A program made the translations under genes and the position numbers. 64,000 bases of DNA from a virus (lineage: Duplodnaviria > Caudoviricetes): positions 191,143-255,142 of the IMG/VR virus record IMGVR_UViG_3300038679_000357; one strand, given 5' to 3'. The notes under the pieces are model-generated. The model searched no databases. It saw nothing but the letters and a program-made list of their open reading frames with translations, and was not told where the DNA came from. Of this stretch, positions 3,060 to 35,509 are shown in pieces (position 1 is the first letter of the stretch; the number at the start of each line of letters is the position of its first letter).

Positions 3060-3950
3060 TCATGGTGGCGGCAATGTGTGAATTTCAATTGAGTGCGCCA
3101 CACAACCTCCTGGAATAACAGACATACTGTAGGTCAGATCATCCGGTCCACAATCAACTATAAACGGAGATGTAAACTCCACGCACGGAGAAACACCACA
3201 ATAGACTCCGAATACCCACCTGCTTCCAACCAGTCGAAGAATCCCATTTCCTCCTAAACTTCCATCGTCAAAATACATACATGGAGAAATTCGTTGCATG
3301 CGATGAGAACCAATTAAATCAATACAGTCAATACATCCACCGCAACCACCAACCCCAGTAACCCCATCGAAAACAACATAATATTCTTCACTAAGAGACG
3401 AATCGCAGTAACTACACTGCACCTCAGCCACGTGCGAGCTATGACTGTGAGATGAACTTTCTGGATTATATGACGAAGATGAGCTTGAATAACTGGCACT
3501 TGAGCTTGAGCCAACGATAGACGGATCTCCTCCGACATACTCAACGGACACCTCAAATGTCGCCAAAGAGGAATCAACGTAAGAAGCCTTCGGAGATGCC
3601 GCCATATGAATATATTTCGTCAAACTCGTAGATCTCATTGGTATGGTCAATACCGATCCAATTCCACAAAAATACTGAGTAAAAGAAACTGCAGGATTAA
3701 GAGCATCTAAAATAGCTACGGCAAAAAGACCATCATCACACAATCCGATGGATGATGGTACAGAATTATCTTTATCAACCGATAAAAAACTTAATTTAAC
3801 CGATGACACGGATCGAATTCCGGAAACAGCAATATCAAATGCAATGGCTTCTCCAATACGTCCAGATTGACATACGCCAAAGTCCAGCGAAGAAACAGCT
3901 CCTTCGCATAAACCTGTAGATAAATCATACTTTCTTACAGTTACTTCCAT
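3060..3950 (-). CDS. Virion structural protein with poly-Ser tract and Cys-rich C-terminus; N-terminal domain paralogous to 5579..6016
   Basis: Likely start is ATG 3950, overlapping the upstream TAA (TAATG). VTVRKYDLSTG...SLDFG aligns with IVREYNPTTG...ELEFG. Confidence 0.65.
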   Translation of the reverse strand: MEVTVRKYDLSTGLCEGAVSSLDFGVCQSGRIGEAIAFDIAVSGIRSVSSVKLSFLSVDKDNSVPSSIGLCDDGLFAVAILDALNPAVSFTQYFCGIGSVLTIPMRSTSLTKYIHMAASPKASYVDSSLATFEVSVEYVGGDPSIVGSSSSASYSSSSSSYNPESSSHSHSSHVAEVQCSYCDSSLSEEYYVVFDGVTGVGGCGGCIDCIDLIGSHRMQRISPCMYFDDGSLGGNGILRLVGSRWVFGVYCGVSPCVEFTSPFIVDCGPDDLTYSMSVIPGGCVAHSIEIHTLPPP

Positions 3951-5572
3951 TAAACACCACACGCACAGTTATAGTCAATAATAAACGCAGAGTTAGGCGC
4001 TCCAGATGCCGTAAATCTATATGTTGCGGAATAAATAAATGTATGGTCTACATAGCTATAGCTCCCCCAACTACCATACGCAACCCACGAAGATCCATCC
4101 CAACGCTGAATATCCCACGAGTTATTTATGGCTGTCGATATAAAAACTCTATCTCCATCGTTAAAATATACATCAACAGGCGGTGGAGTATTATTATTTG
4201 TGTCAATCCTAATAAGAATACATCCATTTGGGTCTGGATTGTTACAATATCCAGATGGATACCAATAGTAATGACACATATTTCCGTATGCACATGCAGG
4301 AGCGCCATAAGTTGAACAACATGTATATCCAGGAATATATGGATCAGTTGAACTTGAACTACTAGATGACGAACTTGAACTCGATGAAGAGCTATAGCTC
4401 GACGAACTAGAAAAAGATCCAGAAGAGCTTGATGACGGACTGTTTGATGAACTTGAACTCGGGAAAGATTCATCGACTCCAATCAAATGAAGCCACCTGC
4501 ATTTTCTCCACGGAATCCACTTTGATGAAATATAATCAAAATACGACACCGACAGTCCAGACTCGCCAAGAGAGTAGGCAACTGGACATTTCCAATGTCG
4601 ATGAACTATAACGCCAGATCTATATTCGCATGTCACGCCAGGATCAAACGGGCGAATATTCCCATTCATTGCAGACCATCTTCCGCCAGGCGTACAAACA
4701 GATACCGACTGGCGAAATATATTTTCCTCAATATCGTATGTCACAGACGAAACAGCGGCAGTGCCATCAGTTGAAATATCATACGAATTCCACCTAGACC
4801 ACCTATCCGGATCAGACACATAACGAAACGGCGTTTCTCCATCAAAAGAATAAGAACGAAAGTAGTTGTACGACTCAGACTCTCTTAGAATAAAGAGAAA
4901 GGGGGCGTTACACCAGAATGAATACGTATCTCCTCCAAATTCAACAGACTTAAAACTCTGTTTTGGGTAAGAAACCATCATCTTTGAAGCAAGAATGGTA
5001 ATGTCATTTCCAACCAATAACGCCCCATGAAGAATGTATCCTGACAGAGAAGTGACCATTTGGACTCTCGAACTCATGTCATATACTCTGATCACATTAC
5101 GAGAATCCTGAACAACGAGCATCACTCCACCATCCGGCATATAAACGGGAACAGACACACAGGCTTCTATATTTGGTAGAAGTGAATCATTCCCATAGAC
5201 TGGCTTCCACTCCCTCGGATCGACAACATCTGGCTTGAATCTTTTTCTAACAAGAATAGGAGCATCAAATTCAGAAACGGACGGATGATAAACTCTTGGG
5301 TCAAAGGATGGAACTGAAATAATAGGTTGTGACGCCCTATCTTCTGCTAAAAACGGAGTAGCTCCAGCAATATTTATGTTTTGCCTGACGGTGGATACTA
5401 AATCAACAGACGTTAAGGCGGCAAAGTTCTGATTAGTATACCATACCGCACCAGAGCCATCAATCATAGCGACATGAAGCTTTTTCCCAGAAAACATCCC
5501 CATTTCCACAATGCCAGAGCCGACAAAGTGAAACGACAAATCATAAGAACCACATTGTTCTATAACCGACAT
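3950..5572 (-). CDS. Virion structural protein (beta-rich) with ~40-aa Ser-rich tract and Cys/Tyr-rich C-terminal domain
   Basis: 540-aa ORF; SSSSSNSPSSSSSGSFSSSSSYSSSSSSSSSSSSSS tract at about 4345-4465. Confidence 0.7.
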   Translation of the reverse strand: MSVIEQCGSYDLSFHFVGSGIVEMGMFSGKKLHVAMIDGSGAVWYTNQNFAALTSVDLVSTVRQNINIAGATPFLAEDRASQPIISVPSFDPRVYHPSVSEFDAPILVRKRFKPDVVDPREWKPVYGNDSLLPNIEACVSVPVYMPDGGVMLVVQDSRNVIRVYDMSSRVQMVTSLSGYILHGALLVGNDITILASKMMVSYPKQSFKSVEFGGDTYSFWCNAPFLFILRESESYNYFRSYSFDGETPFRYVSDPDRWSRWNSYDISTDGTAAVSSVTYDIEENIFRQSVSVCTPGGRWSAMNGNIRPFDPGVTCEYRSGVIVHRHWKCPVAYSLGESGLSVSYFDYISSKWIPWRKCRWLHLIGVDESFPSSSSSNSPSSSSSGSFSSSSSYSSSSSSSSSSSSSSSTDPYIPGYTCCSTYGAPACAYGNMCHYYWYPSGYCNNPDPNGCILIRIDTNNNTPPPVDVYFNDGDRVFISTAINNSWDIQRWDGSSWVAYGSWGSYSYVDHTFIYSATYRFTASGAPNSAFIIDYNCACGV

Positions 5573-5578
5573 TCGACC

Positions 5579-6016
5579 TCAAGAAACGTCAAAAATCCAT
5601 TGATATGATACAGTTCCTGTTCCAACCTTATTGGAATTCATTCTGACATTTAAATAAACGTATTGAGACACTCGTGAAGATCTTCCACCAACGGTTACAG
5701 GGGTATTCACTCCTGCAAAAAACCTGGTCAACGTATTTCTAGGCACAAAATCGACATCGTGTTCGATACCAAAATTCCCATTGCCAGCCGATCCATCCGC
5801 CGTGATGTCAGTTGGAGAATCGTTAACTCCGATAAAATCAGAAGCTGTTATTTGAAGCCTCACATTGGAGATAGAATCAACTCCCTCAACTGTCAAATCA
5901 ACAACTCTCACCGGACTATATTTTCCAACTGGAATGTGCCCAAATTCCAATTCATTCACCACGCCGACAAATTTGCCGGTTGTTGGATTATACTCTCTAA
6001 CAATGGTGGTGGGCAT
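5579..6016 (-). CDS. Small beta-sandwich virion structural protein
   Basis: 145-aa ORF with GAGG SD; paralog of the N-terminus of 3060..3950. Confidence 0.7.
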   Translation of the reverse strand: MPTTIVREYNPTTGKFVGVVNELEFGHIPVGKYSPVRVVDLTVEGVDSISNVRLQITASDFIGVNDSPTDITADGSAGNGNFGIEHDVDFVPRNTLTRFFAGVNTPVTVGGRSSRVSQYVYLNVRMNSNKVGTGTVSYQWIFDVS

Positions 6017-6083
6017 GAAATACCTCTTGAAAAAGCTTGTTGTTTAACATATTTTACCGATTATTTTCATAAAACACCTACCA

Positions 6084-7385: not shown

Positions 7386-7386
7386 A

Positions 7387-9364: not shown

Positions 9365-9367
9365 AAG

Positions 9368-12844: not shown

Positions 12845-12858
12845 TCAACATTCCTGGT

Positions 12859-13305
12859 CTAAGTTGCACTCGATGGAAAATTCACGTGATTTTTAACAAT
12901 ATCGTCAATCTCTTCAATAGTTGAAGATGATTCAATCATCTCTTTCAACCTATAAAACTCATTTCTGAACGCAGAAACAACATTAAAAAAAGATTGTTTC
13001 TCGGAGTCGCTATAAATGCCAAGAGCTGCATTAACAAGCTTGTAGTCAGGAACAATCTTATTTCGCATAACAAAAGACATCGCAGAAATCTCTTCGATCG
13101 CCTCATTTTTTTTAACAAGGACATCCAACACCCACGACTGCCCATTCCACACACAATAACGATTTGGTCTTTCTGAAACTTCAAAAAATGAAGAAGAGCG
13201 ATTGATGATATCCTTTATGTCCGACTTATACTGTTCACTATCCTCGTCATAACTACTGACATATGGAGTATATTTACCGTTGATTATAAAAAATTTCTTT
13301 ACCAT
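12859..13305 (-). CDS. Tail fibre assembly/chaperone-like protein
   Basis: ERPNRYCVWNGQSWVLD motif; lies directly downstream of the fibre gene. Confidence 0.6.
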   Translation of the reverse strand: MVKKFFIINGKYTPYVSSYDEDSEQYKSDIKDIINRSSSFFEVSERPNRYCVWNGQSWVLDVLVKKNEAIEEISAMSFVMRNKIVPDYKLVNAALGIYSDSEKQSFFNVVSAFRNEFYRLKEMIESSSTIEEIDDIVKNHVNFPSSAT

Positions 13306-13312
13306 GAAATCC

Positions 13313-14407
13313 TCACTTTGCTAACGTAGCACCTAAAATTTCAAACGATGCACTTGCAGCAGATGTAGTTGAAATTTCCAATGTCAATGAAGTCTGTCCG
13401 CTATAAATTGGGACATAAATTAAAGCCTGACCATACTGAGCCTCATTAGACCCACCAACACCAGCGCCGACTCTGTGAATTGCATAGCTTGTTCCAAAAA
13501 TAGTAGCGTACACATATGCATCTCTCATAATAAGATTTGAATCACATACCCCAGTACACCTTACATGAAATCCAGATATCTTACTGACATCAAAACCAAC
13601 TCCGCCGTTAAACTCACTAATATCATAGATATACGTTCCATCAGATGTTTGAGTTAAAGACAAAGTATCATGACTTATAATTTGATAACCAATTGACTGA
13701 GTTATTGCCCCAGAATATTTAGGATCAGTTTTCGTTACATATTCATTTCCAGTACCTGGAGGTCCATATGTTCCGGTAAGCGCTATTTTTTGGTTAGCAG
13801 TCGGGAAGCGAGAATCATTACCAGCCGCCAGTGTATTAGGTACCTGTCCAACATCTCCATTTGTGTTAAGAGCCTCGTACGTCACGTCACCAGAAACAAT
13901 AAACGCAGAAGAATGATAAAGATTCCCATGCGTAACAGGAGTTCTAGCATCAGAATTTCTTGGATCAGTATCTGTAACATACTTATTTAATGCGGACGGA
14001 GATCCATTTGTTCCATTTAAAGCTGCTTTTTCATCTGTCGTTGGAATCCTCGGATCTGAATCGGTAACATACTTATTCAACGCAGATGGAGATCCATTTG
14101 TTCCTGGTAATGCTGCTTTTTCATCTGCTGTTGGAAGTCTTGGATCGTTATCTAGTCCATCTTGAACAGCTTGTTCGACGGCAACCTTTTGTAAAATATC
14201 AGTGGAAGAAGCTACATTATAATCTTCATAACCAAAATATGGCAATACACTCCAATTTGTTACTCCATCGCCAATCTTTATCCGATCATGTCCGTCTGGT
14301 CTACGTTCTACGCCTATTTCACCGTCATAAAGAGCTTCATCGACATTAGTCCATTGCGTGCTTGACCCACGTCGATTCATAAATCTTGCAAATTCAGTTA
14401 TAGGCAT
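13313..14407 (-). CDS. Tail fibre protein with Mtd_N (major tropism determinant N-terminal)-type domain
   Basis: RRGSSTQW...LYDGEIGVE...RIKIGDGVTNWSVLPY N-terminus plus internal 30-aa repeats. Confidence 0.75.
   Translation of the reverse strand: MPITEFARFMNRRGSSTQWTNVDEALYDGEIGVERRPDGHDRIKIGDGVTNWSVLPYFGYEDYNVASSTDILQKVAVEQAVQDGLDNDPRLPTADEKAALPGTNGSPSALNKYVTDSDPRIPTTDEKAALNGTNGSPSALNKYVTDTDPRNSDARTPVTHGNLYHSSAFIVSGDVTYEALNTNGDVGQVPNTLAAGNDSRFPTANQKIALTGTYGPPGTGNEYVTKTDPKYSGAITQSIGYQIISHDTLSLTQTSDGTYIYDISEFNGGVGFDVSKISGFHVRCTGVCDSNLIMRDAYVYATIFGTSYAIHRVGAGVGGSNEAQYGQALIYVPIYSGQTSLTLEISTTSAASASFEILGATLAK
13962..14146. repeat. 90-bp (30-aa) in-frame tandem repeat in the tail fibre shaft
   Basis: GGATC anchors at 13962, 14052 and 14142. 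The unit encodes DPR(L/I)PT(A/T)DEKAAL(P/N)GTNGSPSALNKYVTD(S/T). A third, degenerate copy lies near 13720-13820. Confidence 0.9.
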
Positions 14408-14417
14408 TTTTCAGACC

Positions 14418-18834: not shown

Positions 18835-19473
18835 TTAACAAATAGTTCTGCGGATCAACAACGTGGTTATGTTGGGTAATGCTTCATTCCATCGTTTGCG
18901 GATCAAATCTTCTACGTTCGACCAAGCAACAACAACTGCATCTGGTTTTGTCCTATTTATCCAATCCACAACCCCATCCCTGTATAAGTGGTACAAATGC
19001 TCGCCAGGTTTAAAATGACGCCACCCCATCAACTCGAAGAAACTAGCCACATCTGGTGTCTCCGGAAATGACAACAGACAATATTCCCACTTCATTAAAA
19101 ATAAGTCGTTGATATTTTCAAAGTGTTCAAGAACATCACTCAAAACAACCAGACCCCACGTCCTTGAATAGAGATCGTCCCTACTAATTACATTTTCTCC
19201 AACAACATCATATTCGCAGACCTCCTTGAATTTCCCGCGACAACAGTTGGCAAATATCCCATTCCCGCTTCCTACATCAACCATCGACATTTCTTTAATT
19301 TTCTCGTAAGGAATGTAAGCACACATAAACCCCATCCTAAGATAGGACATCTCTACATTAGTGCTCTGTTTTGCTTTATAAGAATCATCATAGACGATTC
19401 TATGTTGATCAACCTGCTTGATAAAACCATTTTCGTAGGCATACCCAGTAGGAAGATCTAACTCCGCTCTCAT
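18835..19473 (-). CDS. Class I SAM-dependent methyltransferase (glycan-modifying type)
   Basis: Motif I MVDVGSGNG and LVVLSDVLEHF motif. Confidence 0.8.
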   Translation of the reverse strand: MRAELDLPTGYAYENGFIKQVDQHRIVYDDSYKAKQSTNVEMSYLRMGFMCAYIPYEKIKEMSMVDVGSGNGIFANCCRGKFKEVCEYDVVGENVISRDDLYSRTWGLVVLSDVLEHFENINDLFLMKWEYCLLSFPETPDVASFFELMGWRHFKPGEHLYHLYRDGVVDWINRTKPDAVVVAWSNVEDLIRKRWNEALPNITTLLIRRTIC

Positions 19474-22309: not shown

Positions 22310-22323
22310 CACAACAAAATTAA

Positions 22324-22782
22324 TCAAGGAGATGTAGAGGAGCTAGAGCTACTTGAAGAGCTAGAGCTACTTGAAGAGCTACTGAATGTCAACCAACACC
22401 TAATGTACTCTACGTTCAAATATTTTGACGAAGAGCTACTTTGGCTAGAAGATGATATGCTCGAACTGCTTTCACTGGAAGACGACATACTTGAGCTTGA
22501 TTTTGAAGACGAACTGGATCTTCCGTCAATTACAGCGCCAACTTGAACTTCTGAAATACGATTTTCAACATATTTACGGGCTCCAGAAAAATGAAGTTCA
22601 TCTTTAGCTCCATCAAGATCATTCCATGGTCCGTCTCCATTAAATCTAATATGATGAGTAATAAGCGAAGTGGGGTCGATTCCGATAGGATATCGGTCAG
22701 TCGGCAATGAAGATACCACCCCAGTTGCCGACACATCGATCAGCGGGGTAAAAACAAAAACATTCCATGGACCGACTATCAT
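22324..22782 (-). CDS. Small Ser-rich virion-type protein with two poly-Ser tracts
   Basis: 152 aa, about one third Ser, C-terminal S16; translation checked against the DNA. Confidence 0.6.
   Translation of the reverse strand: MIVGPWNVFVFTPLIDVSATGVVSSLPTDRYPIGIDPTSLITHHIRFNGDGPWNDLDGAKDELHFSGARKYVENRISEVQVGAVIDGRSSSSSKSSSSMSSSSESSSSISSSSQSSSSSKYLNVEYIRCWLTFSSSSSSSSSSSSSSSSTSP
22340..22375. repeat. 18-bp tandem duplication encoding Ser6
   Basis: GAGCTAGAGCTACTTGAA x2 (22340-22357, 22358-22375). Confidence 0.85.
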
Positions 22783-22822
22783 TGGAAGGGCACCCTGTTA
22801 AATTAACGAGGAATGAAACCAA

Positions 22823-23818: not shown

Positions 23819-24288
23819 TACGTCTTTTTCTTCCCCAAGGCAAAACGCATTTTGCCTATTTTTTCACTATCAGCCAAAATCTGTCCATATGGCTTGTGTA
23901 CGCGCTTGGACTCAAAGGCGTTTTCTTCATTCAAAACGATCGTTTTTATTACTTGTTTTGCACGCTGAGTAAACTTAACTTTTCTAGTATCTTCACCAAC
24001 AACTAATCCAAGCGTCTTCAGTCTCAATACATCACTATTCGACACGGTATCCGGAAGATCCAGCGTATCGCCCATCGACTCTCCGCTCTCTCTCCATACG
24101 CGAAACAAAAGAGAAGCCTCACTATCGCTTAACTTTATATTCTTTTTGGCGGCATCACTTTTTATAATGCCACCGAGAATAGATACATCAATTCCAGAAT
24201 GAATGTCTTCTGGGGAAGAGGGAGTCTCAGCTTGTTGACGTGCAGGATAACCAATTGGAATGATCGGTGATGGCATATTATTCCTCAA
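23818..24288 (-). CDS. Hypothetical protein (possible winged-helix segment)
   Basis: 156-aa coupled ORF; VLRLKTLGLV...VKFTQRAK. Confidence 0.6.
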   Translation of the reverse strand: MRNNMPSPIIPIGYPARQQAETPSSPEDIHSGIDVSILGGIIKSDAAKKNIKLSDSEASLLFRVWRESGESMGDTLDLPDTVSNSDVLRLKTLGLVVGEDTRKVKFTQRAKQVIKTIVLNEENAFESKRVHKPYGQILADSEKIGKMRFALGKKKT

Positions 24289-26641
24289 ACAATTCGGGAT
24301 TCTCGTCTTTCGCCTTTCTCCAGATATCTTTCAAGCCGGAAAGGTTATACTCCTCCAACATCGACTCTCCATTATCATACCTGGATATTTTCACGTACTC
24401 ATAAGCCAACCGCAACTGAGTAATATTTCCTGTGAAAACACTACCAGAATGTTCTAACATAGCCTCCATAAGCTCTGGAACGATCGTATATCCTCGAAGA
24501 GCCATAATAATAGCTCTAGTAATGATCAATGGATTTCTTGGGATGATTTCTCCAGGTTGGAATATAGTTTTCACAACCTTTGACTTGGCATCCTCAATCC
24601 CCATGCCAGTGATATCGTATATCTTCCCCTTAACAAAATCATAAAGTAGACTATTAGCCGTAAAATCACGAGCATATATGTCGTAGTTTAATGACGTGAC
24701 CTGCACTCCATTTTTTCTCATAAGGTCACGAACATCAACGGGAACAAAATTTCCGCGAAAATCCATTTTCATCCCGTCATAAGAAAAGCTCATCGTCATT
24801 GTTCTTAATAGAACACTCATATCAGTGGCATTTAACTCTTCGGCAAGAAGTCCACCCATTTTTAAACATTCTGTTGGATTTCCAGAGGTAAAATCGATAT
24901 CGTTAACTTCCCTATAATCACCACTGCCAATCATTGTCCTTGGCAATCCACCAACCGCATACACAGAGTTTATCCCGTGCTCGCGACAAACCGTCTTGGC
25001 AACCGTTAAAATATATGAGATCTGGTCAGAAATGCGTGCTGAAGTTCCCATAATCTCATCCACGGAATCTGAATCACCTATAATGATTGCCTTTTCCATA
25101 TTGATAATTGCTTTTTCATCTACATGAGGTGAAACAAGCCATATAGCATCATGATCTCCATGCTCAAACTTGTAAACCCTCATATCGGAACAAGCTCGCT
25201 CTATGGCGTCAGACATATACGAAAAGCAATACATTCTCACTGCCGGGCGCTTTCCAGACTTTACCTGAAACTTGTAGAAGCCTATTTTTCTCATGGACTC
25301 AAGGATGATGTTTTTTGTTTTATCATCAGCCTCTATTGCTGCAGCCTTCCTCCATGGACCGGTAACAATATCCTCACGATATAGAGAACTCCATGTCATT
25401 GGATTGTTATTACAGTAATCAATCATTGTAAAGTTCACGTCATACTGATATGACATACGACCAAAACGATCGGTTTGATAACTGACATTTTCCGGACGAT
25501 ATCGTTTATGCCAATAAGGATCTTCACCTTCTTTGTAGTCAATCCTATCTACAATATCTCGACCATCCATTACGCGAGGAATTGCCTCGTCAATTGCGTA
25601 AAACGGTCCACCAATATTTGGTCCACCAAGGTTAGAGTTGATTCCAGCAGTTTTTCGTACTGGTCGTATGATCGGACGAGGTCTGGCATTTTCCAATAAC
25701 TCCTGTAAGGTCATCCTCTTAACCTCGTCGTCGGTGTAATCGGCAGACAATCCATCAGCCACAGAAAAATCAGGCGGAAGAGGCTTATGATGGTTTTTTT
25801 GTAATATCGTCTCCATACTGTCATTAGGCTTCTTATCAACAGGGAAAAACATGTTGTCAAAATCACTAAAAGATTGCAGCATTGCCTCTGGAAGAACAGC
25901 GTCCAAAAATGGAACGATTTGAGCCTTCTTTATCGGCATCTTAGACGAAGCATTATATATTTCACTACCCATTTCAAATGGAATGCGACCTTGTGACTTT
26001 CTTGTGGAGTTCAGTTCGCCTATTTTTTCATTTGTCCACTTTTTTTGTGCCTGAATTGGAGCAGACTCGTCTTTTGCTCCAAGAGCGTGAACCGACTCAT
26101 GAACAATCGTAGATCCCAAATGAAGAGCCACGAGAAGGTCAAAATCAGATTGATCCAGTGGTTTATATTCACTTCCAGATATCTGCTTGGATAAATCCTG
26201 AAAATTCTTTTTCGCAATATCGAGAATCTTAGCAGCATTTATTCCGATAACAAGACCACCTTTCAAGTCAAGATTACCATACATCTTATCCATTTCGTCA
26301 CGAACCTGATCTGGGTTTTTATCATCAGACCAAGCATACAGGCTACCATTTTCATAGCGAACACTGTACCCCATCTTTTTAAGTTCAGCCTCAACAATTT
26401 TGACTTTAACGGATCGATCTATGTTTGGATCAAAAACTCCAAAAGCACCAGACTCAGAAGAATTATATATATAAGCAATATTGGTTAAATTTCCGCCAAA
26501 CGACGAACTTCTCACCATATCGAGAGCTGTCCCAGCCTGTGATAAAACAGAGGCAATTTCGCCAATATCAACTTTTGATGGCGAACCTATGTTTCCTTCG
26601 ATAGAAGGTACGATCCTATCTATTTCACCGGGCTGATACAT
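24278..26641 (-). CDS. Multidomain protein: HExxH (zincin-like) region plus C-terminal class II nucleotidyltransferase (CCA-adding/poly(A) polymerase family)
   Basis: HESVH at 26087-26101; VYAVGGLPRT...NDIDF, MDFR, ARDFTANSLLYD, KIYDITG.GIED, and RNPLIITRAI in the motif D position. Confidence 0.8.
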   Translation of the reverse strand: MYQPGEIDRIVPSIEGNIGSPSKVDIGEIASVLSQAGTALDMVRSSSFGGNLTNIAYIYNSSESGAFGVFDPNIDRSVKVKIVEAELKKMGYSVRYENGSLYAWSDDKNPDQVRDEMDKMYGNLDLKGGLVIGINAAKILDIAKKNFQDLSKQISGSEYKPLDQSDFDLLVALHLGSTIVHESVHALGAKDESAPIQAQKKWTNEKIGELNSTRKSQGRIPFEMGSEIYNASSKMPIKKAQIVPFLDAVLPEAMLQSFSDFDNMFFPVDKKPNDSMETILQKNHHKPLPPDFSVADGLSADYTDDEVKRMTLQELLENARPRPIIRPVRKTAGINSNLGGPNIGGPFYAIDEAIPRVMDGRDIVDRIDYKEGEDPYWHKRYRPENVSYQTDRFGRMSYQYDVNFTMIDYCNNNPMTWSSLYREDIVTGPWRKAAAIEADDKTKNIILESMRKIGFYKFQVKSGKRPAVRMYCFSYMSDAIERACSDMRVYKFEHGDHDAIWLVSPHVDEKAIINMEKAIIIGDSDSVDEIMGTSARISDQISYILTVAKTVCREHGINSVYAVGGLPRTMIGSGDYREVNDIDFTSGNPTECLKMGGLLAEELNATDMSVLLRTMTMSFSYDGMKMDFRGNFVPVDVRDLMRKNGVQVTSLNYDIYARDFTANSLLYDFVKGKIYDITGMGIEDAKSKVVKTIFQPGEIIPRNPLIITRAIIMALRGYTIVPELMEAMLEHSGSVFTGNITQLRLAYEYVKISRYDNGESMLEEYNLSGLKDIWRKAKDENPELFEE

Positions 26642-27230
26642 CTTTTACTCTTGTTGGAGTTTTAGTTGGTGTCGCAGAAGGAGATTCTTTTTCCTCATCT
26701 TTTTCTTTCTTTTTTACACCAAGAGAAAAATCATTATTGACGAGATTTGCTCCAGTAGGAACGTCAATATCAACGTATTCAATATCAGCAGCACTCCTGC
26801 CTTCATCACTAGTTTCTTGCGGAGGTTCGTTTAGCACCAAATCTTCATCATCTTCTTCAACCGTATATACATCTTTATGCGATTCAAGCCAATCACTTAA
26901 TACCTTGGTCTCCTTTACGTCAAGAGCAGAGATTGTTTCCCATCCAGACCCCAAAGATTTACCTACATTTTTATCAACCATTTCCGTAAAAAATGAAAAA
27001 TCTCCAAGCTCAGATATATGTTTTCCGTCTGGACTTTGATGATCAATTATCATTTTCTTTTCTTCTTTATCTACCAAAAACTTAGTAAGATATTCTACCG
27101 ATATGACAACGGTATTTCCACCAGAATCATCGCCGCCAGAATTATCGTCACTAGACTGGGAAATCTTGACTGGTCTTTTAACAGAAATTAGTTTCCACCT
27201 ATCATTTTCCAAAACTTCATACAGTCTCAT
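26625..27230 (-). CDS. Hypothetical acidic protein
   Basis: 201-aa ORF with overlapping start/stop. Confidence 0.65.
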   Translation of the reverse strand: MRLYEVLENDRWKLISVKRPVKISQSSDDNSGGDDSGGNTVVISVEYLTKFLVDKEEKKMIIDHQSPDGKHISELGDFSFFTEMVDKNVGKSLGSGWETISALDVKETKVLSDWLESHKDVYTVEEDDEDLVLNEPPQETSDEGRSAADIEYVDIDVPTGANLVNNDFSLGVKKKEKDEEKESPSATPTKTPTRVKDVSAR

Positions 27231-28248
27231 GTTTCATCTCCGTCATTAATTGATTCACATATTCAGAAGGAATAGCGGCATTTAACCCATAATTTCCAGT
27301 TGGCTGAACAATCATAGCTGCCACGCCAATAACAACGCCATCCAACACATCAATTATCGGACCGCCAGAACTACCAGGATATACCGCTAAATCGACAAAG
27401 AAATACGACCCCACACTGTCAGTGCCAACACTTCTTCCGATAGATGAGATCATCCCTCTTGAAACATTATTGTCATAGCCATACGGACTTCCTACGCATA
27501 AAATATCAGCACCAGTTTTCATCGCGGAAATCCCCTTCATACCAAGATAGGTGTGTTTTACTGTCTCACACGACATCAACGCCAGATCACGATCGTAATC
27601 TACTTCAATTGGTATAACACGATGACGTCGACCAGATTCAACAAGATAACATGAGACTGACTTAGGATCTTCCTGCCTGCGACTTATTACATGAGCACAT
27701 GTGACAAACAATGTTTCGTCTATAGCAAAACATGATCCGATTTCCATCTTACCATATTTCGACGATTCGCATTCCATTTTGAAGCAAGCCGACATAACGT
27801 CGGCAATCACCGGAATAATATCTTGTTTTTCTCCAGAAGAAGCCTGCCGATCAGGTTTCCTACCACGCCTAGTCATCATAATGTATCTTTTTTTAGACCA
27901 GTCTTTCATTACCTTTTCGTAATCTGAGTCGGGGTAAACATGTTCTTTGTGTTCTACATCAAGAACAATTATCTCAGTTGAATAATTAATGTCTCGATCA
28001 CCACTCTCGATTTCAGTTTCATTTCTGAAAAAACCACCGACAGCGTGAGACACTCCATCCGGCTCTACTCCAATGAATTTATGGTCTCCCCCCATATTGG
28101 AGTCAAAGGTGGTCCGTTCCTTATCCCCAGGTCCACCGCCATACCAAGGAGATTGTTTTGACTTGTCGGTGACAGGAGACAACCCACCATCGAACGGCAT
28201 TGTTGTTCGATGAGCTGCTATTTTATCGGTTATCTTCCTGATTTTCAT
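27217..28248 (-). CDS. Trypsin-like (S1/HtrA-type) serine protease with N-terminal extension, no PDZ
   Basis: Intact triad TCAHV / DRDLAL / YPGSSGGP. Confidence 0.85.
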   Translation of the reverse strand: MKIRKITDKIAAHRTTMPFDGGLSPVTDKSKQSPWYGGGPGDKERTTFDSNMGGDHKFIGVEPDGVSHAVGGFFRNETEIESGDRDINYSTEIIVLDVEHKEHVYPDSDYEKVMKDWSKKRYIMMTRRGRKPDRQASSGEKQDIIPVIADVMSACFKMECESSKYGKMEIGSCFAIDETLFVTCAHVISRRQEDPKSVSCYLVESGRRHRVIPIEVDYDRDLALMSCETVKHTYLGMKGISAMKTGADILCVGSPYGYDNNVSRGMISSIGRSVGTDSVGSYFFVDLAVYPGSSGGPIIDVLDGVVIGVAAMIVQPTGNYGLNAAIPSEYVNQLMTEMKHETV

Positions 28249-28254
28249 TTTTCC

Positions 28255-28632: not shown

Positions 28633-28640
28633 ATCAACTC

Positions 28641-29036: not shown

Positions 29037-29052
29037 ATATTCTGATTAACCA

Positions 29053-30834
29053 TTACATAGTCCTACCAACATTTGCCAAAACAGAAGATGGAAGAGAATT
29101 AACGATTCCATAACCGGACGCCATCCAAGTTGCTCCTGCGATACAGTCGGCTAAATCATCCGTCGGAAAATCAGATTTCACATCCTTATCTATCGACACC
29201 CCTCTTGTTGTCGACTTAACCTTTAAGTTAAGTAATTCTCCGTATATGTAATCATCGTGGTACATCCAAAACTCATCGGCATTCATTAGATCTTCAAGAT
29301 TTTTGTAAAAAGAGGCTTTTCCGCCTCTCGAAAACGAAAGTCTTGTTGCAATGATTCCCTTCCCCTTTAAAAACGCTATACTATGAACAGAATTCCATAA
29401 ATCGTAAGAAATTCTCATGGTCTTGAATTTTCGACAGATATCGTAAACTTCCGCATCAATTGCTTGAAAATCAAGCAACTGACCTCCTGGTTTCCACATC
29501 CGATGTGTAGCCAAATAACACCGATGCCTCTTTTCTCCACGACGATTGACATACTTCGTCTTACCTACAACTGCTAATGCATAGTTATCCCTGGTTGAGG
29601 CTGGATCGACATGGATATAATATTCAACATGCGGTTCTGCTCCTGTGCGCATGAACATAAACGTTTTTATGGCGTTAGAAACGGTATCTTTAGCAAAATA
29701 ATTTCTCTTTGATCCGCTCTTTCTCCACATCGACCCATATTCTGTATCGAACGACTCCTGGTCTCTTTTTCTTTCTTTTGTTAGAAACTCACAATCATAT
29801 GGAAGATCCTCGTTTATATCCCATGTAGCCAACCTAAAAGACAAGGTCTTGCGAAATTCATCATCCACACTGTTGCCATTTTCCCATATCTCATAAAAAA
29901 TACCACTAGGATAATTTACTGAAGAAATTTCAACTAGTCTACCGTCACCCTTAATCGTGAATTTTGCGATAGACGGAATGAGTGCGTTGTAAAAAGTTCT
30001 TCCAGAAACGACTGGGTTTTCATCGTAAAATGCCAACTCGTCAAACAAAATAGCAGCAGCAGAATAACCACGTAAGGTATCTGGATTGCTATGTCCGCAA
30101 ACCAATACAATTGATCCTTTTACAGAAATATTGGTGGTCGGATCAGATTTGTTCCGAATATCCGCATCAGTAAGAAGACGGATTTCAGTAGATAAGGCAT
30201 CGCCATCGATTCTACCGCGAAAAAACTTACATTTTCTCAATCGATTTTTGACCTGTGAGAATAAACGTTGTGACTGAGGTCCAGAATTAGCTACATTGAT
30301 AATGGCGATTTCTTCGTCATCAGGAATACCATAAAACTTATACGGATCACCAATCTTTATGAGCTTATATGCCTCATACGCAACAATAATCGAAGTCATA
30401 ATGGTTTTTGATGCGCGACGACCAAGCGCCAGGTGTAATTCATTGAATGTAAAATTCGAAGGTTCTCCTGGATTTTTACCATCCCTCATTTTTCTAAGTC
30501 GATGAATTACGTTATCAAGTTGTTTGTCGTGTAACCATTTTTCCTCTTCCGGCGACAATGTTACGTTTTCATTTCCCCTTGTCCCCATATAGAAGCACTT
30601 TAAAATAACTCGCTGCCCAAGAAAAAGGGGGAAATTATGTTGAGGAAGATCAAGAAAATCTGGATGGTTACAGAAGGTTATTATGTCAACTATATAATCA
30701 AACTGATCAACAGAAGTTTGCTCAACAGATAGTCCGGCATCAGCCCGGACCTTGTTCATCAATACTTCTAGTGGAGCAGAAACTTGTCCATCCTGATGTC
30801 TGTCAGAATGCGTGTTTTTCTTTCTTGGGGGCAT
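29053..30834 (-). CDS. terL: Terminase large subunit
   Basis: LALGRRASKT Walker A variant, ILFDELAF Walker B, VEISS coupling motif, RNase H-like YYIHVDPAS..DNYALAV and TDDLADCIAG. Confidence 0.9.
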   Translation of the reverse strand: MPPRKKNTHSDRHQDGQVSAPLEVLMNKVRADAGLSVEQTSVDQFDYIVDIITFCNHPDFLDLPQHNFPLFLGQRVILKCFYMGTRGNENVTLSPEEEKWLHDKQLDNVIHRLRKMRDGKNPGEPSNFTFNELHLALGRRASKTIMTSIIVAYEAYKLIKIGDPYKFYGIPDDEEIAIINVANSGPQSQRLFSQVKNRLRKCKFFRGRIDGDALSTEIRLLTDADIRNKSDPTTNISVKGSIVLVCGHSNPDTLRGYSAAAILFDELAFYDENPVVSGRTFYNALIPSIAKFTIKGDGRLVEISSVNYPSGIFYEIWENGNSVDDEFRKTLSFRLATWDINEDLPYDCEFLTKERKRDQESFDTEYGSMWRKSGSKRNYFAKDTVSNAIKTFMFMRTGAEPHVEYYIHVDPASTRDNYALAVVGKTKYVNRRGEKRHRCYLATHRMWKPGGQLLDFQAIDAEVYDICRKFKTMRISYDLWNSVHSIAFLKGKGIIATRLSFSRGGKASFYKNLEDLMNADEFWMYHDDYIYGELLNLKVKSTTRGVSIDKDVKSDFPTDDLADCIAGATWMASGYGIVNSLPSSVLANVGRTM

Positions 30835-30835
30835 T

Positions 30836-32191
30836 TTATTCCATGAAGATTTCTACATCATCATCGGTCATCCATACATCTGTAATGAGACCGTTGTCCA
30901 TCTCTATCCTTACCGGAAATTCAACATACGTGTTATAAAATTCCATCCTATCTTGGTCAATTTTACCAGCCATCCCTTCATATTCTGACCCTGGTTTAAT
31001 GACCTTAACCAAGGACGCCCCCTTTAATCTCTCAACATTGTCTTTAATTACATCATTTATTTCTTGCTGATATGAGGCAATTTTCGTAACTGGATCTGTA
31101 ATTTTCACAGTATAACTTGATGATTTTGTTTCTTTTCCGCCAACAGCAGAAAATGTCACCACCTTTCTCGTCTTTCCATCGCCAGAAATGGCGTCAAAGC
31201 TATCTGGTCCCTTAGACATCATCTTAGATGACAATAAGATAATATCATCGACGTCAAGGGGTTGCATATGACCAACCGCCAACAATGACGGAATCATCAC
31301 ATCCATATAGTGAGAATAGCTAAACGGAGACGTTTCACGACACTTTGTAATACCACGGAAAAGCGCGTTTTCTCCAACGTGAACAACAACTCTTTTATCG
31401 TCGGAAATAACATGAACATCATATCCCGTCATCGACGGAATCATGCCGAGTATTTTAGGATCGGTCATCCCTATTGCACCACAAGCCCGGTCTACATAAA
31501 AAGAGGCAAGCTCAGGAAGAAAATCAATATTTTTTGTGTTTGACGTCTTAATAAAACCAATCCACCCAGCCGCCTTTGGCGTTTCAAATTGCATCGGTTC
31601 AGATTTTTCGGTAGTATTTTCAGACTGCATCCAGCGTTTATAATTGCTCGAAATGTATTGAAGGATATCCTGCATTTGCGATTTTAGTTCCTTCAACTTT
31701 ACAAGATTATCATTATTTTTGTCGTCACCTACATCTTTTTCAACTTCCTTGATCATCATATCCATTTCTCCGCCATCCTTGGCATAAGTATCAACATATG
31801 ATTTCAAGGCTGGGACCGTACGATCTCTATTGTTGAATGACTCATTTTCTTCGTCGGAAGCAATTTCTTTTAGTTTTCCACTGCAATAATCTATAATCGA
31901 CTTGTACTTTGATACAATGTTAGCATGGATCATGTTCATGTTATCCATGGCATCGTAAGCAATCCTATTGCGAAAAAGAAAATCAACTGCTGATACAGCG
32001 GCAAGTTCACGGCTAGAATACACACCTCCATCAGATAACCCATACCGCCTAGAGTCAAACGCAACTTTTCCAGAAGCGTTTCTTATTCTAAACCAATACT
32101 GGTTATCTCGACAAGAGATATCAACTAGGTCGTAATACTGCATAAATCCTTCACCTTTTTGAACGAATCGGCTCCAAATAGACTTATACAA
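30836..32191 (-). CDS. Hypothetical protein (real start probably MQYYD); possible internal head protein
   Basis: 451-aa ORF immediately upstream of terL; contains IKTS and KIAS motifs. Confidence 0.65.
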   Translation of the reverse strand: MYKSIWSRFVQKGEGFMQYYDLVDISCRDNQYWFRIRNASGKVAFDSRRYGLSDGGVYSSRELAAVSAVDFLFRNRIAYDAMDNMNMIHANIVSKYKSIIDYCSGKLKEIASDEENESFNNRDRTVPALKSYVDTYAKDGGEMDMMIKEVEKDVGDDKNNDNLVKLKELKSQMQDILQYISSNYKRWMQSENTTEKSEPMQFETPKAAGWIGFIKTSNTKNIDFLPELASFYVDRACGAIGMTDPKILGMIPSMTGYDVHVISDDKRVVVHVGENALFRGITKCRETSPFSYSHYMDVMIPSLLAVGHMQPLDVDDIILLSSKMMSKGPDSFDAISGDGKTRKVVTFSAVGGKETKSSSYTVKITDPVTKIASYQQEINDVIKDNVERLKGASLVKVIKPGSEYEGMAGKIDQDRMEFYNTYVEFPVRIEMDNGLITDVWMTDDDVEIFME

Positions 32192-32916
32192 CGTTTGCCG
32201 TATACACTCCTATCACTTGATAGCGCAGAACAAGACTGATTATGAATACAGATTGTAGGAACTCTTAATAATCCAGACAGATTTGTTAACAAACTATCTG
32301 AACCAATCACCACCTTAGCCGTGAGCATCATCTCCATATATTCAGATAGCATCATTCCTCTAGCATCTATAGATATCCAATCCGGACAAGGATCATCAAG
32401 TGTTCCCATACAGACTGACGAAGATCCTGGTACTGGATCTATCAATGGAAGAATCCTTCTCTCGTTGTTTCTGCTTCCAAAATGATAATAAATCATATCT
32501 CCGCCAATCCAGTTTACAGAGGGGGCTGGAAACTCCACATTATTCGAAGAAGTATCGCCCCATAATCCACCACAATAAGCTAAAAACGCTGCCACATGAC
32601 ACCCAGTAGGAATCCATCGAGGGCAACAATTGTAATACCGATCATAGCCAGGATATAACACTTCCAAAATGGAGGTCGAATATCTGGACATATCTATACC
32701 AGCTACTGCCTCATCCATTGGTGGATTCCACATCTCAGTGCTGATACATTCTCCTATTGGCATTCCGATCTTAGACAACACCGGATAGACTGAAGAAAAA
32801 CGTGAGTTTACCAATATATCTGGAGCCTGACCATTAAGTTTAGTCGCCAACGATGCCGCGAACATCGCCGACACGACATCACCCATCCTACCATAAATTG
32901 CCATAAGAGATTTCAA
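32125..32916 (-). CDS. Second GT9-like glycosyltransferase
   Basis: GRMGDVV N-terminal motif; VIGSDSLLTNLSGLLRVPTICIH (GxDSG-H-like). Confidence 0.7.
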   Translation of the reverse strand: MKSLMAIYGRMGDVVSAMFAASLATKLNGQAPDILVNSRFSSVYPVLSKIGMPIGECISTEMWNPPMDEAVAGIDMSRYSTSILEVLYPGYDRYYNCCPRWIPTGCHVAAFLAYCGGLWGDTSSNNVEFPAPSVNWIGGDMIYYHFGSRNNERRILPLIDPVPGSSSVCMGTLDDPCPDWISIDARGMMLSEYMEMMLTAKVVIGSDSLLTNLSGLLRVPTICIHNQSCSALSSDRSVYGKRCISLFGADSFKKVKDLCSITT

Positions 32917-33398
32917 ACAATCCTCGAAAATTTTCCAGTTTGTTTGCGGAAAAGAACAATTCCTCGCTCTTCAAATTCATTCTGACGAAAGGTTGAAATA
33001 ACCCCCTCTTTCATCATTGCCCTAAATAATGGGAAACGATAGCTTCCAGGTCCATTAATACATAACAAACCGTCATCCTTCAGCAATCCTTCAAGGCACA
33101 TATAAAGAATGGTGGAAAAACTATTTTCATTAAGATCAACAACAACCACATCAGATTTTTCAGTAGTTGGAAAAGACATAGGATCACAACCACACGATTC
33201 AACCCCCAATGGCGGCGAACCCGTATTACCACAATACCTATATTTTACCTTTTTTAGTGTAGAAATAATTGACAGAGCAAAAGCCCAGGCATCATCATTT
33301 CCAAAATATACAAAGGACAACCCATCCTGTTTGCCAAATGTGCTTCCAATCAGCTTTCCAGGATCTAGCTTAGAATTATCAACACGGACTGAAACCAT
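32913..33398 (-). CDS. Divergent Rossmann/methyltransferase-like protein
   Basis: DVVVVD...LLKDDGLLCI resembles MTase motifs IV-VI; lies within the GT block. Confidence 0.4.
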   Translation of the reverse strand: MVSVRVDNSKLDPGKLIGSTFGKQDGLSFVYFGNDDAWAFALSIISTLKKVKYRYCGNTGSPPLGVESCGCDPMSFPTTEKSDVVVVDLNENSFSTILYMCLEGLLKDDGLLCINGPGSYRFPLFRAMMKEGVISTFRQNEFEERGIVLFRKQTGKFSRIV

Positions 33399-34089
33399 GT
33401 TTTTCCCTAAAATATTTAGTGTTAGGTCCTCTTCCAGCCTTCATTTCCGGAGTTCCAGTAGGCGGATGTCTCATATGCCGCGTTACCGACTTACCACTCA
33501 ACACTGATTTATAGCCCTTATTCAAACACATATAAGCAAAATCTGCATCTTCTAACCCCCAAGCCCCATTATACCCCTCATCAAATCCACCGACAGCTTC
33601 CCACGCCTGTATCGGGAATGATATATTTCCTCCATACGCAGACATCCAGTGAACATGTCCTACATCTTTTCCAGAAAGCCATGGACGACGATGATCTTTA
33701 GAGATGAGATTAATCCCCATTTCATCATAATTATCAGTTAACCCAACCGATAACGATTTGTTACTTTGAGAATACGACAAATCGTGTCCAATAAAATAAC
33801 CATTTTCTGGCATACAATCAGCATCAAGCAGCACAATAGCATCGGTATTATCAGACACAGCTTTAATTCCGTTATTTCTGACAGTACATAATCGATAGCC
33901 ATCATGTTTACCTGTAGTTACTATCTTGGCAAACAACCCTGACTTTTCAGCCCACTCCAATGTTCCATCTGTTGAACAATCATCACTAAGTATTCGCTCA
34001 ATACTATTATCAATTCGAATAATAGCATCGACTGTCCGCTGTAAATATGACAGCTTATTAAAACTACAGATGACAATGCTATAATTCAT
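33379..34089 (-). CDS. GT2 glycosyltransferase with GT7-type C-terminal motif
   Basis: YSIVICSFN, ILSDDCSTDGT, VLLDAD, GGFDEGYNGAWGLEDADFAY. Confidence 0.9.
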   Translation of the reverse strand: MNYSIVICSFNKLSYLQRTVDAIIRIDNSIERILSDDCSTDGTLEWAEKSGLFAKIVTTGKHDGYRLCTVRNNGIKAVSDNTDAIVLLDADCMPENGYFIGHDLSYSQSNKSLSVGLTDNYDEMGINLISKDHRRPWLSGKDVGHVHWMSAYGGNISFPIQAWEAVGGFDEGYNGAWGLEDADFAYMCLNKGYKSVLSGKSVTRHMRHPPTGTPEMKAGRGPNTKYFREKHGFSPC

Positions 34090-34886
34090 TTTGCTTCTTC
34101 CGGCAGCTCATATTTTACCTTCCCATATAGTCTTGAAATCAGTAATGGATACGAGGAAGGATCGGATGGAACATCATATCCACTTTCATACTTCGACAAA
34201 GCGATTCTTTCCTTTGCCTCACGCGCCTGTGCCTGGTATTCTACATGTCTGGAATAAAGCTTCCCGTGTTCAACCTTTTTGATATCACAATTTTCAGGGA
34301 ACACCCAACCAAGATGATATAGCTTACACGGAATTTTATCTGGACGACACACCGGTTCTATCGATCCCTGAAAATTCCAGGCATCTCCAAGAAATTTGAT
34401 ATCGTGTCGATTTCGAACCATTCTAATTGCCTGATCATAGGCAATCTTTTTCGGTAGCGGCTCCCAAGAGTGGATAAAATGACAAAATTCAAATGATACT
34501 GAATTGAAATTACCGGCAGTACCATTTGCTACCGACTTAATGAATTCAACATTCCCCTCATGAATAACCTCGTCAGCCTGTAAATAATATACCCACTCAT
34601 ATGCACACCGTCTAAAATTCTTTTCAGAGATCCAGGCGATAACTTCTCCGTATTGCGACGGCTTTTCGTTCCAGTTATCACGGAACACCCTAAATTCAGG
34701 TCCGTTTGAGGTTCCGTACTTCGATATGAATTTAGCTATGCATTCAGCCGTTCCATCGTCGGAGCCACCTTCACTAATTACTATCTCATTGGCAAACGGG
34801 AGACAGGATTGCAACGATTCCCAAAACGGATATCCCTGTCTAATTCCATTTTTGATGATAAAACATACTGAAATACCACTTTTCAC
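34086..34886 (-). CDS. GT2 glycosyltransferase
   Basis: ISVCFIIKN, EIVISEGGSDDGT, YLQADEV, LYHLGW. Confidence 0.85.
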   Translation of the reverse strand: MKSGISVCFIIKNGIRQGYPFWESLQSCLPFANEIVISEGGSDDGTAECIAKFISKYGTSNGPEFRVFRDNWNEKPSQYGEVIAWISEKNFRRCAYEWVYYLQADEVIHEGNVEFIKSVANGTAGNFNSVSFEFCHFIHSWEPLPKKIAYDQAIRMVRNRHDIKFLGDAWNFQGSIEPVCRPDKIPCKLYHLGWVFPENCDIKKVEHGKLYSRHVEYQAQAREAKERIALSKYESGYDVPSDPSSYPLLISRLYGKVKYELPEEAK

Positions 34887-35509
34887 TGCACACCTATAAG
34901 ATATGGGTTGTTATATGTAATCCTTCCCGACAATCTCTTAACAGATTTTGGAATATGAGAAGTAAGCTTTGATAGCGGATCTTTTCCGTTAAAGTCGCCA
35001 AAATTAAACTGCCAAATTGGCTTTGGTTGCAATCCCGCAGGGGCTAATTTCAATTTTTTACGACAACTTGACATAACCAGCCCCTCATTATTGATCGAAA
35101 TTAATGGTACTCCAATGAATAATCTCATATCCTCGCAGTCTGAATACAAACACCCATTTTCACCAATTTTTACACCCACAACCCGCAACATAGCGCCATC
35201 AAATTCTTGATGGTTCTTAACTAAATCCCAAAGATAATGATAAGAATCCTCATGAATTACTTCATTCCCATATAGAATGAAGTTCCATCCATTTCTAGGT
35301 AGATTAAAACACACTTCATGAATGGAATCATAATGGTAAATTTGAATACCACCCTTCAATCGTTGATATTCACCACAGACTGTCTGAACATTTTCATTAA
35401 CGCCAAGGTCGCAAACTACAACTTTATCACAAAATGACCTACATGAATCAATAGATTCCCACATGAAATCTTTTCCGCACAAAATAAAAGCTGTTAGCTC
35501 TAAACCCAA
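34883..35509 (-). CDS. Degenerate GT2-like protein
   Basis: Paralog-like to its neighbour (SCRSFCDKVVVCD, ILYGNEVIHE), but the DxD motif is altered. Confidence 0.55.
   Translation of the reverse strand: MGLELTAFILCGKDFMWESIDSCRSFCDKVVVCDLGVNENVQTVCGEYQRLKGGIQIYHYDSIHEVCFNLPRNGWNFILYGNEVIHEDSYHYLWDLVKNHQEFDGAMLRVVGVKIGENGCLYSDCEDMRLFIGVPLISINNEGLVMSSCRKKLKLAPAGLQPKPIWQFNFGDFNGKDPLSKLTSHIPKSVKRLSGRITYNNPYLIGVQ

Follow-up and report, generated by a model that had tools for sequence, protein, structure and literature searches.

Serine-rich repeat proteins (SRRP) of Gram-positive bacteria are glycosylated by a pair of GT4-family glycosyltransferases, GtfA and GtfB, which initiate the glycan; GT8 and GT2 enzymes extend it, and an accessory Sec system exports the product. 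Chloroviruses and mimiviruses glycosylate their capsids and fibrils with multi-enzyme machinery of their own, which includes sugar methyltransferases. Among phages, demonstrated cases of virion glycosylation are, to our knowledge, few. In mycobacteriophages, the account of Freeman et al. (2023) given in PMC12619734 places glycans at the C-termini of capsid and tail-tube subunits. TibC and AAH, the bacterial autotransporter heptosyltransferases (BAHT), are GT9-related cytoplasmic enzymes encoded beside the autotransporter that they hyper-O-glycosylate on serines (PMC4358343). The TibC structure has a flattened β-barrel N-domain, an iron finger (C339/C342/C358/C370) in a C-lobe insertion, and a dodecameric ring with a β-hairpin thumb (PMC4358343). 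GmaR of Listeria is a flagellin O-GlcNAc-transferase (PMC9638930). In the present study, we analysed a 64,000-nucleotide stretch of phage DNA (the window), which forms the final 64 kb of an IMG/VR virus record (IMGVR_UViG_3300038679_000357; 255,142 bp, with a completeness rating of 97%). In this window, genes for proteins with long poly-serine (poly-Ser) tracts flank a methyltransferase, a GT8 and a divergent GT9-like glycosyltransferase. On balance, we consider it probable that the phage O-glycosylates the Ser tracts of its own fibre-like virion proteins, the enzyme associated with the tracts being the member of the GT9 subfamily.

Poly-Ser tracts and the proteins that carry them

A sequence-only reading of this DNA had named four structural-type proteins with long Ser runs. 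The runs were confirmed in all four, while the structural label is a putative assignment: the fibre- or adhesin-like domains of these proteins (propeller, immunoglobulin (Ig)/fn3-like and Cys-rich ends) suggest that they are parts of the particle. Every gene from 1 to 38.4 kb of the window lies on the minus strand, and the strand is given below only for genes beyond this point.

The largest of the four is a fibre/adhesin-like giant of 1470 amino acids (aa; 14418-18830), composed of NHL/propeller-like and Ig/fn3-like (Rha78A_N-like) modules. It carries runs S10, S6, S6 and S9 plus a terminal S18; three Ser tracts fall at conserved module boundaries, in addition to the S18 tail. The tract positions are kept in the orthologues of two relatives (L002 and L008) at 31-36% identity, with differing tract lengths. 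Directly upstream of the GT9 gene lies the gene for a 152-aa protein (22324-22782), a candidate acceptor. This protein is 32% Ser, with an (SSSSx)n repeat and an S16 run, and its layout comprises a conserved N-domain of ~85 aa, poly-Ser at residues 89-119, a NWLY..C-like motif and the C-terminal S16 tail. Its family shares the ~85-aa N-domain, the poly-Ser and the short motif, which are followed by a variable C-part ranging from nothing to ~1500 aa. As far as the sequences suggest, this layout resembles an anchor, then a stalk, then a variable tip.

The remaining two proteins are encoded side by side. The 300-aa protein (3060-3962) has an N-domain like that of a neighbouring 145-aa protein, a Ser tract at residues 147-177 (S4 and S6 within a stretch of 18/30 Ser) and a Cys-rich C-terminal domain. 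The 540-aa protein (3950-5572) has a propeller-like N-part, runs S5, S5, S5 and S15 at residues 372-408, and a Cys/aromatic-rich C-terminal domain; a low-confidence Atlas model, read together with the sequence, shows the tract connecting the propeller-like part with the Cys-rich end. The domains that follow the tracts in these two proteins (3060-5572) hold many Cys and aromatic residues, for example YTCCSTYGAPACAYGNMCHYYWYPSGYCNN. Such ends are atypical of cytoplasmically folded proteins and may reflect metal binding or disulfides formed after release. The 145-aa protein (5579-6016) corresponds to the N-domain on its own, which in the 300-aa protein stands ahead of the Ser tract. The same domain recurs, again ahead of Ser repeats, in a 422-aa protein that consists mostly of (SSSSSSL)n and is encoded outside the window (G000 40102-41370). 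Several tracts are periodic, with seven (SSSSSSL) units in the 422-aa protein and six (SSSSx) units in the 152-aa protein. Another locus (L033:7778-9886) encodes ~30 units of (S8 R/K), a periodic tract with regular spacers.

The tracts are encoded by all six Ser codons in scrambled order, which excludes replication slippage as their origin and suggests that selection acts at the level of the protein. In the genome as a whole, 9 genes hold 35 runs of at least five Ser, whereas a mean of 1.9 was obtained when residues were shuffled protein by protein (at most 7 in 200 shuffles). Homopolymer runs of all other residues together numbered 6, compared with 37 for Ser. The scrambled codons, this excess, and the conserved positions and variable lengths of the tracts in orthologues indicate that the Ser tracts are under protein-level selection. 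The record holds 46 tRNA genes, and its four tRNA-Ser jointly read all six Ser codons. Among the 46, an amber-suppressor-type tRNA (anticodon CTA) was called by ARAGORN at G000 18373-18447, outside the window.

Some of the longest runs end their proteins: S18 at residues 1452-1469 of 1470 in the giant, S16 at 134-149 of 152 in the candidate acceptor, and S13 at 444-456 of 458 in a protein encoded outside the window. Many tracts are C-terminal tails and therefore cannot be linkers.

The methyltransferase, GT8 and GT9 trio

Between the 1470-aa and 152-aa genes lies the methyltransferase-GT8-GT9 trio that the sequence-only reading had described, and all three assignments were upheld, the first two by Pfam and the third by its fold and by ~55% identity to known family members. 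The S-adenosylmethionine-dependent methyltransferase (18835-19473; 212 aa) matched Pfam Methyltransf_23 above the cut-off (E 2e-7). Its orthologues were found in all relatives, and it is also adjacent to the GT9 in two further loci, L022 and L037. The GT8-family glycosyltransferase (19476-20588; 370 aa), a candidate glycan extender, matched PF01501 above the cut-off (29.1 bits, E 1e-6), and its orthologues in the relatives are 58-62% identical and occupy the same position.

The candidate for the initiating step is the GT9-like glycosyltransferase (20592-22280; 562 aa). It begins with a folded, lineage-specific N-domain (residues 1-135), followed by a disordered stretch (141-220) and the GT-B catalytic domain (222-550). 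Against Pfam PF01075 the protein scored 15.9-17.5 bits, below the gathering threshold of 22, and its C-terminal 320 aa are ~55% identical to hundreds of PF01075-bearing proteins. Neither a PDB sequence search (phmmer) nor a profile search with the GT9 family returned a glycosyltransferase match. The structural model (predicted local distance difference test, pLDDT, 80) was compared with the PDB using Foldseek, and the top matches were all GT9 enzymes (3tov, WaaF 1psw, TibC and WaaC), with E 1e-11 and a template modelling (TM) score of 0.62 by target for 3tov and E 5e-7 for TibC. The protein is accordingly predicted, from this model, to have the heptosyltransferase-type GT-B fold.

A PGD motif (P235 G236 D237), invariant in 24 sequences, stands at the start of the catalytic domain, where it was matched to the known GT9 catalytic Asp by position alone. 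In WaaC, we take the catalytic Asp to be D13, in the G-D motif that opens the N-lobe. In TibC it is D110 (PMC4358343). An insertion in the C-lobe holds six conserved Cys residues (459, 488, 489, 494, 514 and 529) in a region of low local pLDDT. The N-domain is modelled as mixed α/β, with one strand, five helices and four strands, and is limited to ~27 close homologues.

The subfamily to which this enzyme belongs is discrete, with 728 clusters (50% identity) at E≤1e-30 among 1.84 billion representatives, and its members are often fused with GT2 or methyltransferase domains. Ser runs occurred in 0/266 of the GT9-family proteins retrieved. NTP_transferase was not found, and no search was aimed at heptose-pathway genes.

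Conservation of the locus in relatives

Homologues of the GT9 and of a neighbouring 787-aa protein led to seven syntenic metagenome loci. Wherever the sequences of the relatives span the site, the gene order is DUF192, Ser-tract protein, an optional extra gene, GT9, GT8, methyltransferase and giant. Six of them show the arrangement of Ser-tract protein, GT9, GT8, methyltransferase and Ser-tract giant (L002, L003/L004, L006, L007, L008 and L017). This order is conserved although protein identities among the relatives are just 30-60%. The one remote relative found (L011, 24% identity) lacks the trio and, at this site, also Ser runs.

The Ser protein upstream of the GT9 varies widely in length, measuring 126, 127, 185, 654 (in L006, with an S70 run) or 1616 aa. 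Homologues of the 152-aa protein occupy the same position in L002, L003/L004, L006, L007 and L008. In three loci, a sulfotransferase (Sulfotransfer_3 and Sulfotransfer_1, above cut-offs) lies between the Ser protein and the GT9 (L003:8927-9973, L004:5768-6868 and L007:11219-12307). This hints at sulfated glycans in those relatives; the gene is absent from the present genome.

Association of the GT9 subfamily with poly-Ser across phages

An alignment of the GT9 subfamily recovered 58 IMG/VR loci, 48 of them non-redundant, with a G+C content of 28 to 67%; the loci in this comparison are only partly independent. A protein with a run of at least six Ser was encoded within 10 kb of the GT9 in 23 of the 48 loci (40/1044 genes). 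As a control, we used 80 IMG/VR loci from a DNA scan for eight TCN codons, mostly acidic tracts on the other strand, from which the pattern-bearing genes were excluded. Here, such a run was present in 1/933 genes, giving an odds ratio of 37 (p=1.5e-10). The excess near the GT9 persisted when small, medium and large proteins were taken separately, and the Ser-run frames were verified as the sole open frames. The sequence-only reading had asked whether poly-Ser structural genes and GT9, GT8 and GT2 genes co-occur across related phage genomes, and such co-occurrence is seen in the synteny of six relatives and in this enrichment.

The pairing is also close. The nearest tract lay within 4 kb of the GT9 in 17 of the 23 loci, compared with about 10 expected; the Ser gene was often the immediate neighbour of the GT9, and the tracts were as long as S42 or made up of dozens of S8 units. 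When mapped onto a GT9-domain tree, the trait shows at least 12 state changes, and the association occurs in at least 10 clades. The poly-Ser neighbours that could be named with PHROG were all virion parts, namely a major tail protein, a tail terminator, tail fibre J, a baseplate wedge and a structural protein. In one related locus, the major tail protein carries a C-terminal poly-Ser tail. Other GT9 neighbours in the poly-Ser loci included Maf/MptE-like proteins, which were among the commonest, as well as GT4, GT2 and sugar methyltransferases.

Bacterial genes of the subfamily were found in small accessory cassettes rather than in clusters for the lipopolysaccharide (LPS) core, and one lay beside a gene for a Ser/Thr-tract protein. 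This bacterial locus, on a 502-kb contig (L016:10001-20990), encodes a GT9-subfamily protein, a Mannosyl_trans3+Methyltransf_24 fusion, the 654-aa Ser/Thr-tract protein and a DUF6603 giant. The Ser/Thr-tract protein has a weak trypsin-like domain, and the pairing is the same as that in the phage loci.

Proposed glycosylation of the tracts

The synteny in six relatives, the enrichment of poly-Ser proteins near the GT9 and the identity of the virion-part neighbours lend strong comparative support to the core idea of self-glycosylation. The claim of the sequence-only reading that the glycosyltransferases act on virion Ser tracts gains from the same evidence, with its 37-fold enrichment and its recurrence in at least 10 clades. 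The evidence lends no such support to heptose as the sugar, to the O-linkage, to methylation falling on the glycan and not on the protein, or to a tail/baseplate position.

In the proposed mechanism, the poly-Ser tracts would serve as acceptor tags, placed between modules and as C-terminal tails of fibre- or adhesin-like proteins. Late in infection, in the cytoplasm, the divergent GT9 (20592-22280) would attach the first sugar to serine hydroxyls. The GT8 would lengthen the glycan, and the methyltransferase would then cap it. A second block of sugar genes (32125-35509) and, in other parts of the genome, three further glycosyltransferase clusters may supply other sugars or serve other acceptors. 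The fibres would thereby be covered in a dense, mucin-like brush of glycans, which could stiffen and protect linkers and could alter adhesion or recognition.

Several observations weigh against this mechanism. The case for self-glycosylation comes from genes, with no glycan, mass shift or activity observed, and neither the donor sugar nor the acceptor can be read from sequence. The four window proteins are assigned to the virion by the likeness of their domains and by weak PHROG matches of neighbouring proteins. In roughly half of the GT9-subfamily loci, no poly-Ser protein is encoded within 10 kb, and six or seven poly-Ser viral loci found by the DNA pattern have no such GT9 in their short flanks. 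Within the present genome, the proximity of Ser-tract genes to glycosyltransferase genes was not significant against chance (P=0.13), and the tight pairing here concerns the trio and not the whole set of Ser-tract genes. Because control loci were chosen without matching for module or phage type, a common preference for fibre modules could inflate the odds ratio.

The GT9 loci that have no poly-Ser neighbour nearby, the proximity result and the unmatched controls also fit a different explanation, in which the tracts are plain flexible linkers and the glycosyltransferases serve host LPS, capsule, exopolysaccharide or a free glycan, for superinfection exclusion or receptor masking. The co-occurrence would then follow from the make-up of fibre and accessory regions. 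Polyserine linkers occur in secreted carbohydrate-active enzymes of some bacteria, the tracts of the 1470-aa and 540-aa proteins lie at module boundaries, and the GT9, GT8 and GT2 families are described as classically modifying LPS and polysaccharides. However, the numerous terminal tails have nothing to join, the odds ratio of 37 persists in every protein-size class, and most tracts are no farther than 4 kb from the GT9, often in the gene adjoining it. Every close relative has a Ser-tract protein immediately upstream of the GT9, even though that protein is otherwise highly variable. Furthermore, no flippase, polymerase or undecaprenyl-phosphate-type initiating transferase was present among the Pfam-scanned proteins, in a scan that was not an exhaustive annotation. 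We regard the linker explanation as unlikely, and as the most serious of the alternatives.

The enzymes could also glycosylate virion proteins at other residues or sites, with the tracts merely acting as linkers in the same proteins. Known protein glycosylation in phages and bacteria is often on scattered Ser/Thr or short motifs, and a GT2 enzyme of the second block resembles GmaR, which modifies folded flagellin. Against this, the Ser run itself travels with the GT9 across unrelated phages in carrier proteins that are not mutually homologous, and we consider this explanation improbable. Hypermodification of the phage DNA, as in glucosylated hydroxymethyl pyrimidines, is very unlikely: large phages often glycosylate their DNA, but no thymidylate-synthase-like hydroxymethylase was found in the 255-kb record, the genes lie among particle genes adjoining Ser-tract proteins, and we know of no DNA-glycosylating enzymes in the GT8, GT9 or GmaR-like GT2 families. 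DNA glycosylation has been discussed as an option for jumbo-phage glycosyltransferases (PMC12619734).

The proposed glycosylation of Ser tracts by the GT9 subfamily can be taken one step further. Poly-Ser might be a portable glycosylation tag and the GT9 subfamily (~730 clusters) its dedicated initiator, such that any virion or surface protein that gains a run would become a substrate. We hold this wider proposal tentatively, at slightly less than an even chance. If it is true, many phage lineages and some bacteria make mucin-like brushes on tails and fibres by a pathway without a cultured model. A search of the literature on polyserine or heptosyltransferases together with phages found no description of phage poly-Ser tracts paired with GT9. 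Codon-scrambled Ser runs combined with one enzyme subfamily form a signature by which candidate glycosylation systems can be recognised across dozens of phage lineages, all of them uncultured. Should the system operate as proposed, phage surface glycans would be predictable from sequence, and sugar coats on tails and fibres would be widespread among environmental phages. This would bear on host recognition, particle stability, stickiness in polysaccharide matrices and the immune recognition of therapeutic phages, and it would offer a compact tag-and-enzyme pair for glycoengineering.

Second glycosyltransferase block and other sugar genes

The sequence-only reading had described a second block of GT9, methyltransferase-like and GT2 genes one gene upstream of terL and in the same orientation. 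Its location was confirmed by the large terminase (TerL; 29053-30834; phrog_2, E 1.7e-24), also on the minus strand and one gene downstream of the block. The GT2 assignments stood, the GT9 became tentative and the methyltransferase-like gene could not be sustained.

The GT2a glycosyltransferase (33379-34089; 236 aa) matched Pfam GT2 (E 1e-13) and has an invariant LLDADC (DxD) motif. GT2b (34086-34886; 266 aa) is a GmaR-like GT-A glycosyltransferase whose Pfam GT2 match was below the cut-off. The sole PDB match of its profile was the glycosyltransferase domain of GmaR (chain residues 7-178, E 7e-7), and it has an invariant QADE, the DxD-type motif of a GmaR-like GT-A domain. Its 208-aa paralogue (34883-35509), recognised with hhalign (98.4%, E 8e-15), has the DxD-like ADE motif changed to GNE, and orthologues of it were found in L005, L006 and L008.

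The 263-aa protein (32125-32916) is tentatively a compact GT9-like protein, with an N-terminal GRMGDVV motif and a C-terminal GSDSLLTNLSG..VPT motif. Its model was poor (pLDDT 49), and the top nine PDB matches were all GT9 (WaaF, 3tov and WaaC; E 7e-5 to 3e-4). It had no Pfam, NCBIfam or profile match, including none to the 562-aa GT9. The conserved 161-aa protein (32913-33398), the former methyltransferase-like candidate, had spermidine synthase as its best PDB match (E 0.17), and Pfam, profile and PDB comparisons assigned it no fold.

This block is also conserved in the relatives, in the order AAA ATPase, GT2b paralogue, GT2b, GT2a, 161-aa, 263-aa and 451-aa proteins and TerL, with an extra GT2 in some of them. 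The gene for the AAA_21/AAA_15 (AbiEii/OLD-like) ATPase (35500-36675) overlaps the block at its start, and with 66% identity in L005 it is a conserved part of the neighbourhood. Glycosyltransferase genes number at least 11 in the genome as a whole, which also encodes an NAD-dependent sugar epimerase/dehydratase. Those outside the window comprise a further GT2, three GT4, a Glyco_trans_1_2 protein and a second weak GT9, together with the sugar epimerase/dehydratase.

Lineage of the phage and neighbouring genes

The best match of TerL among 50,697 GenBank phage records was 24% identical, and megablast and tblastn searches of the same records found no match for the region or for the 562-aa GT9. 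We conclude that this jumbo phage is uncultured and deeply divergent. When IMG/VR was scanned with the GT9, PolyA_pol, TerL and GT2a proteins, used singly or as lineage alignments, zero or one locus was returned. The lineage itself is almost absent from IMG/VR.

Next to the 1470-aa giant, a 364-aa protein (13313-14407) has a tail-fibre-type N-terminus, matching several tail fibre/spike PHROGs (E about 1e-8) and, weakly, Mtd_N. A paralogue of it lies among giant fibre genes at G000 108622-109161. The adjacent 148-aa protein (12859-13305) gave a weak tail-fibre-assembly-like match (phrog_105, E 0.004).

Three genes past TerL, a trypsin-like (Trypsin_2) peptidase (27217-28248) is kept in the relatives and is a candidate prohead protease of an unusual type. 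Between this peptidase and the 152-aa Ser-tract protein, the 787-aa protein (24278-26641) combines an invariant HExxH (HESVHALGD) metalloprotease-like motif with a C-terminal head domain of the PolyA_pol/CCA-adding nucleotidyltransferase type, and is 53-70% identical across all relatives. Further upstream, the phage encodes a PAS-domain protein (40205-40942, minus strand; PAS_9, E 1e-9). A 1626-aa giant with no family match and then a DUF4376-like protein are encoded upstream of the packaging genes (41089-46525, minus strand). The DUF4376 domain type occurs in tail-fibre assembly proteins, and these two genes may form another fibre-plus-chaperone pair.

Comparison with known systems

The analogy with TibC and AAH drawn in the sequence-only reading is upheld in fold and in logic. 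Like those enzymes, the phage protein is a GT9-related GT-B enzyme with an extra N-terminal domain and a Cys-bearing C-lobe insertion, and its candidate acceptor is encoded adjacently. The analogy does not extend to sequence, where the searches gave no match, and in structure 3tov and WaaF match better than TibC. The N-domain is mixed α/β in the phage enzyme and a flattened β-barrel in TibC, the Cys spacing is unlike C339/C342/C358/C370, and the candidate acceptor is a homopolymeric Ser tract instead of a β-helix autotransporter. On sequence and N-domain, membership of the 562-aa GT9 in the TibC/AAH family fails.

A link to flagellin O-glycosylation is seen in the match of GT2b to the glycosyltransferase domain of GmaR and in the Maf/MptE-like genes that are common near the GT9; no flagellin is present here, and the tetratricopeptide repeat (TPR) and anti-repressor domains of GmaR are absent. 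With the giant viruses, the phage would share a virus-encoded, multi-enzyme glycosylation, which in their case involves eukaryotic hosts and other linkages and enzymes.

In the mycobacteriophages, as far as the account cited above describes them, the system differs in lineage and probably in enzyme families, and the present one is characterised by long homopolymeric Ser runs on fibre-like giants that are known from genes alone. What the two share is the presence of phage-encoded glycosyltransferase genes within or beside structural genes, and the C-terminal Ser tails found here parallel the C-terminal glycans of that account.

The SRRP pathway differs in using a GT4 pair where the phage has the GT9 subfamily, and in having an export system, which is not seen here. 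No GT4 was found in the window, and the three GT4 genes of the genome lie elsewhere. Even so, the SRRP pathway and the phage locus have in common a Ser-rich tract as the acceptor, here a candidate one, on an adhesin-like fibre. In both, the gene for the substrate, here a presumed one, adjoins genes for more than one cytoplasmic glycosyltransferase, GT8 and GT2 types among them, which in the phage would likewise build a multi-sugar O-glycan.

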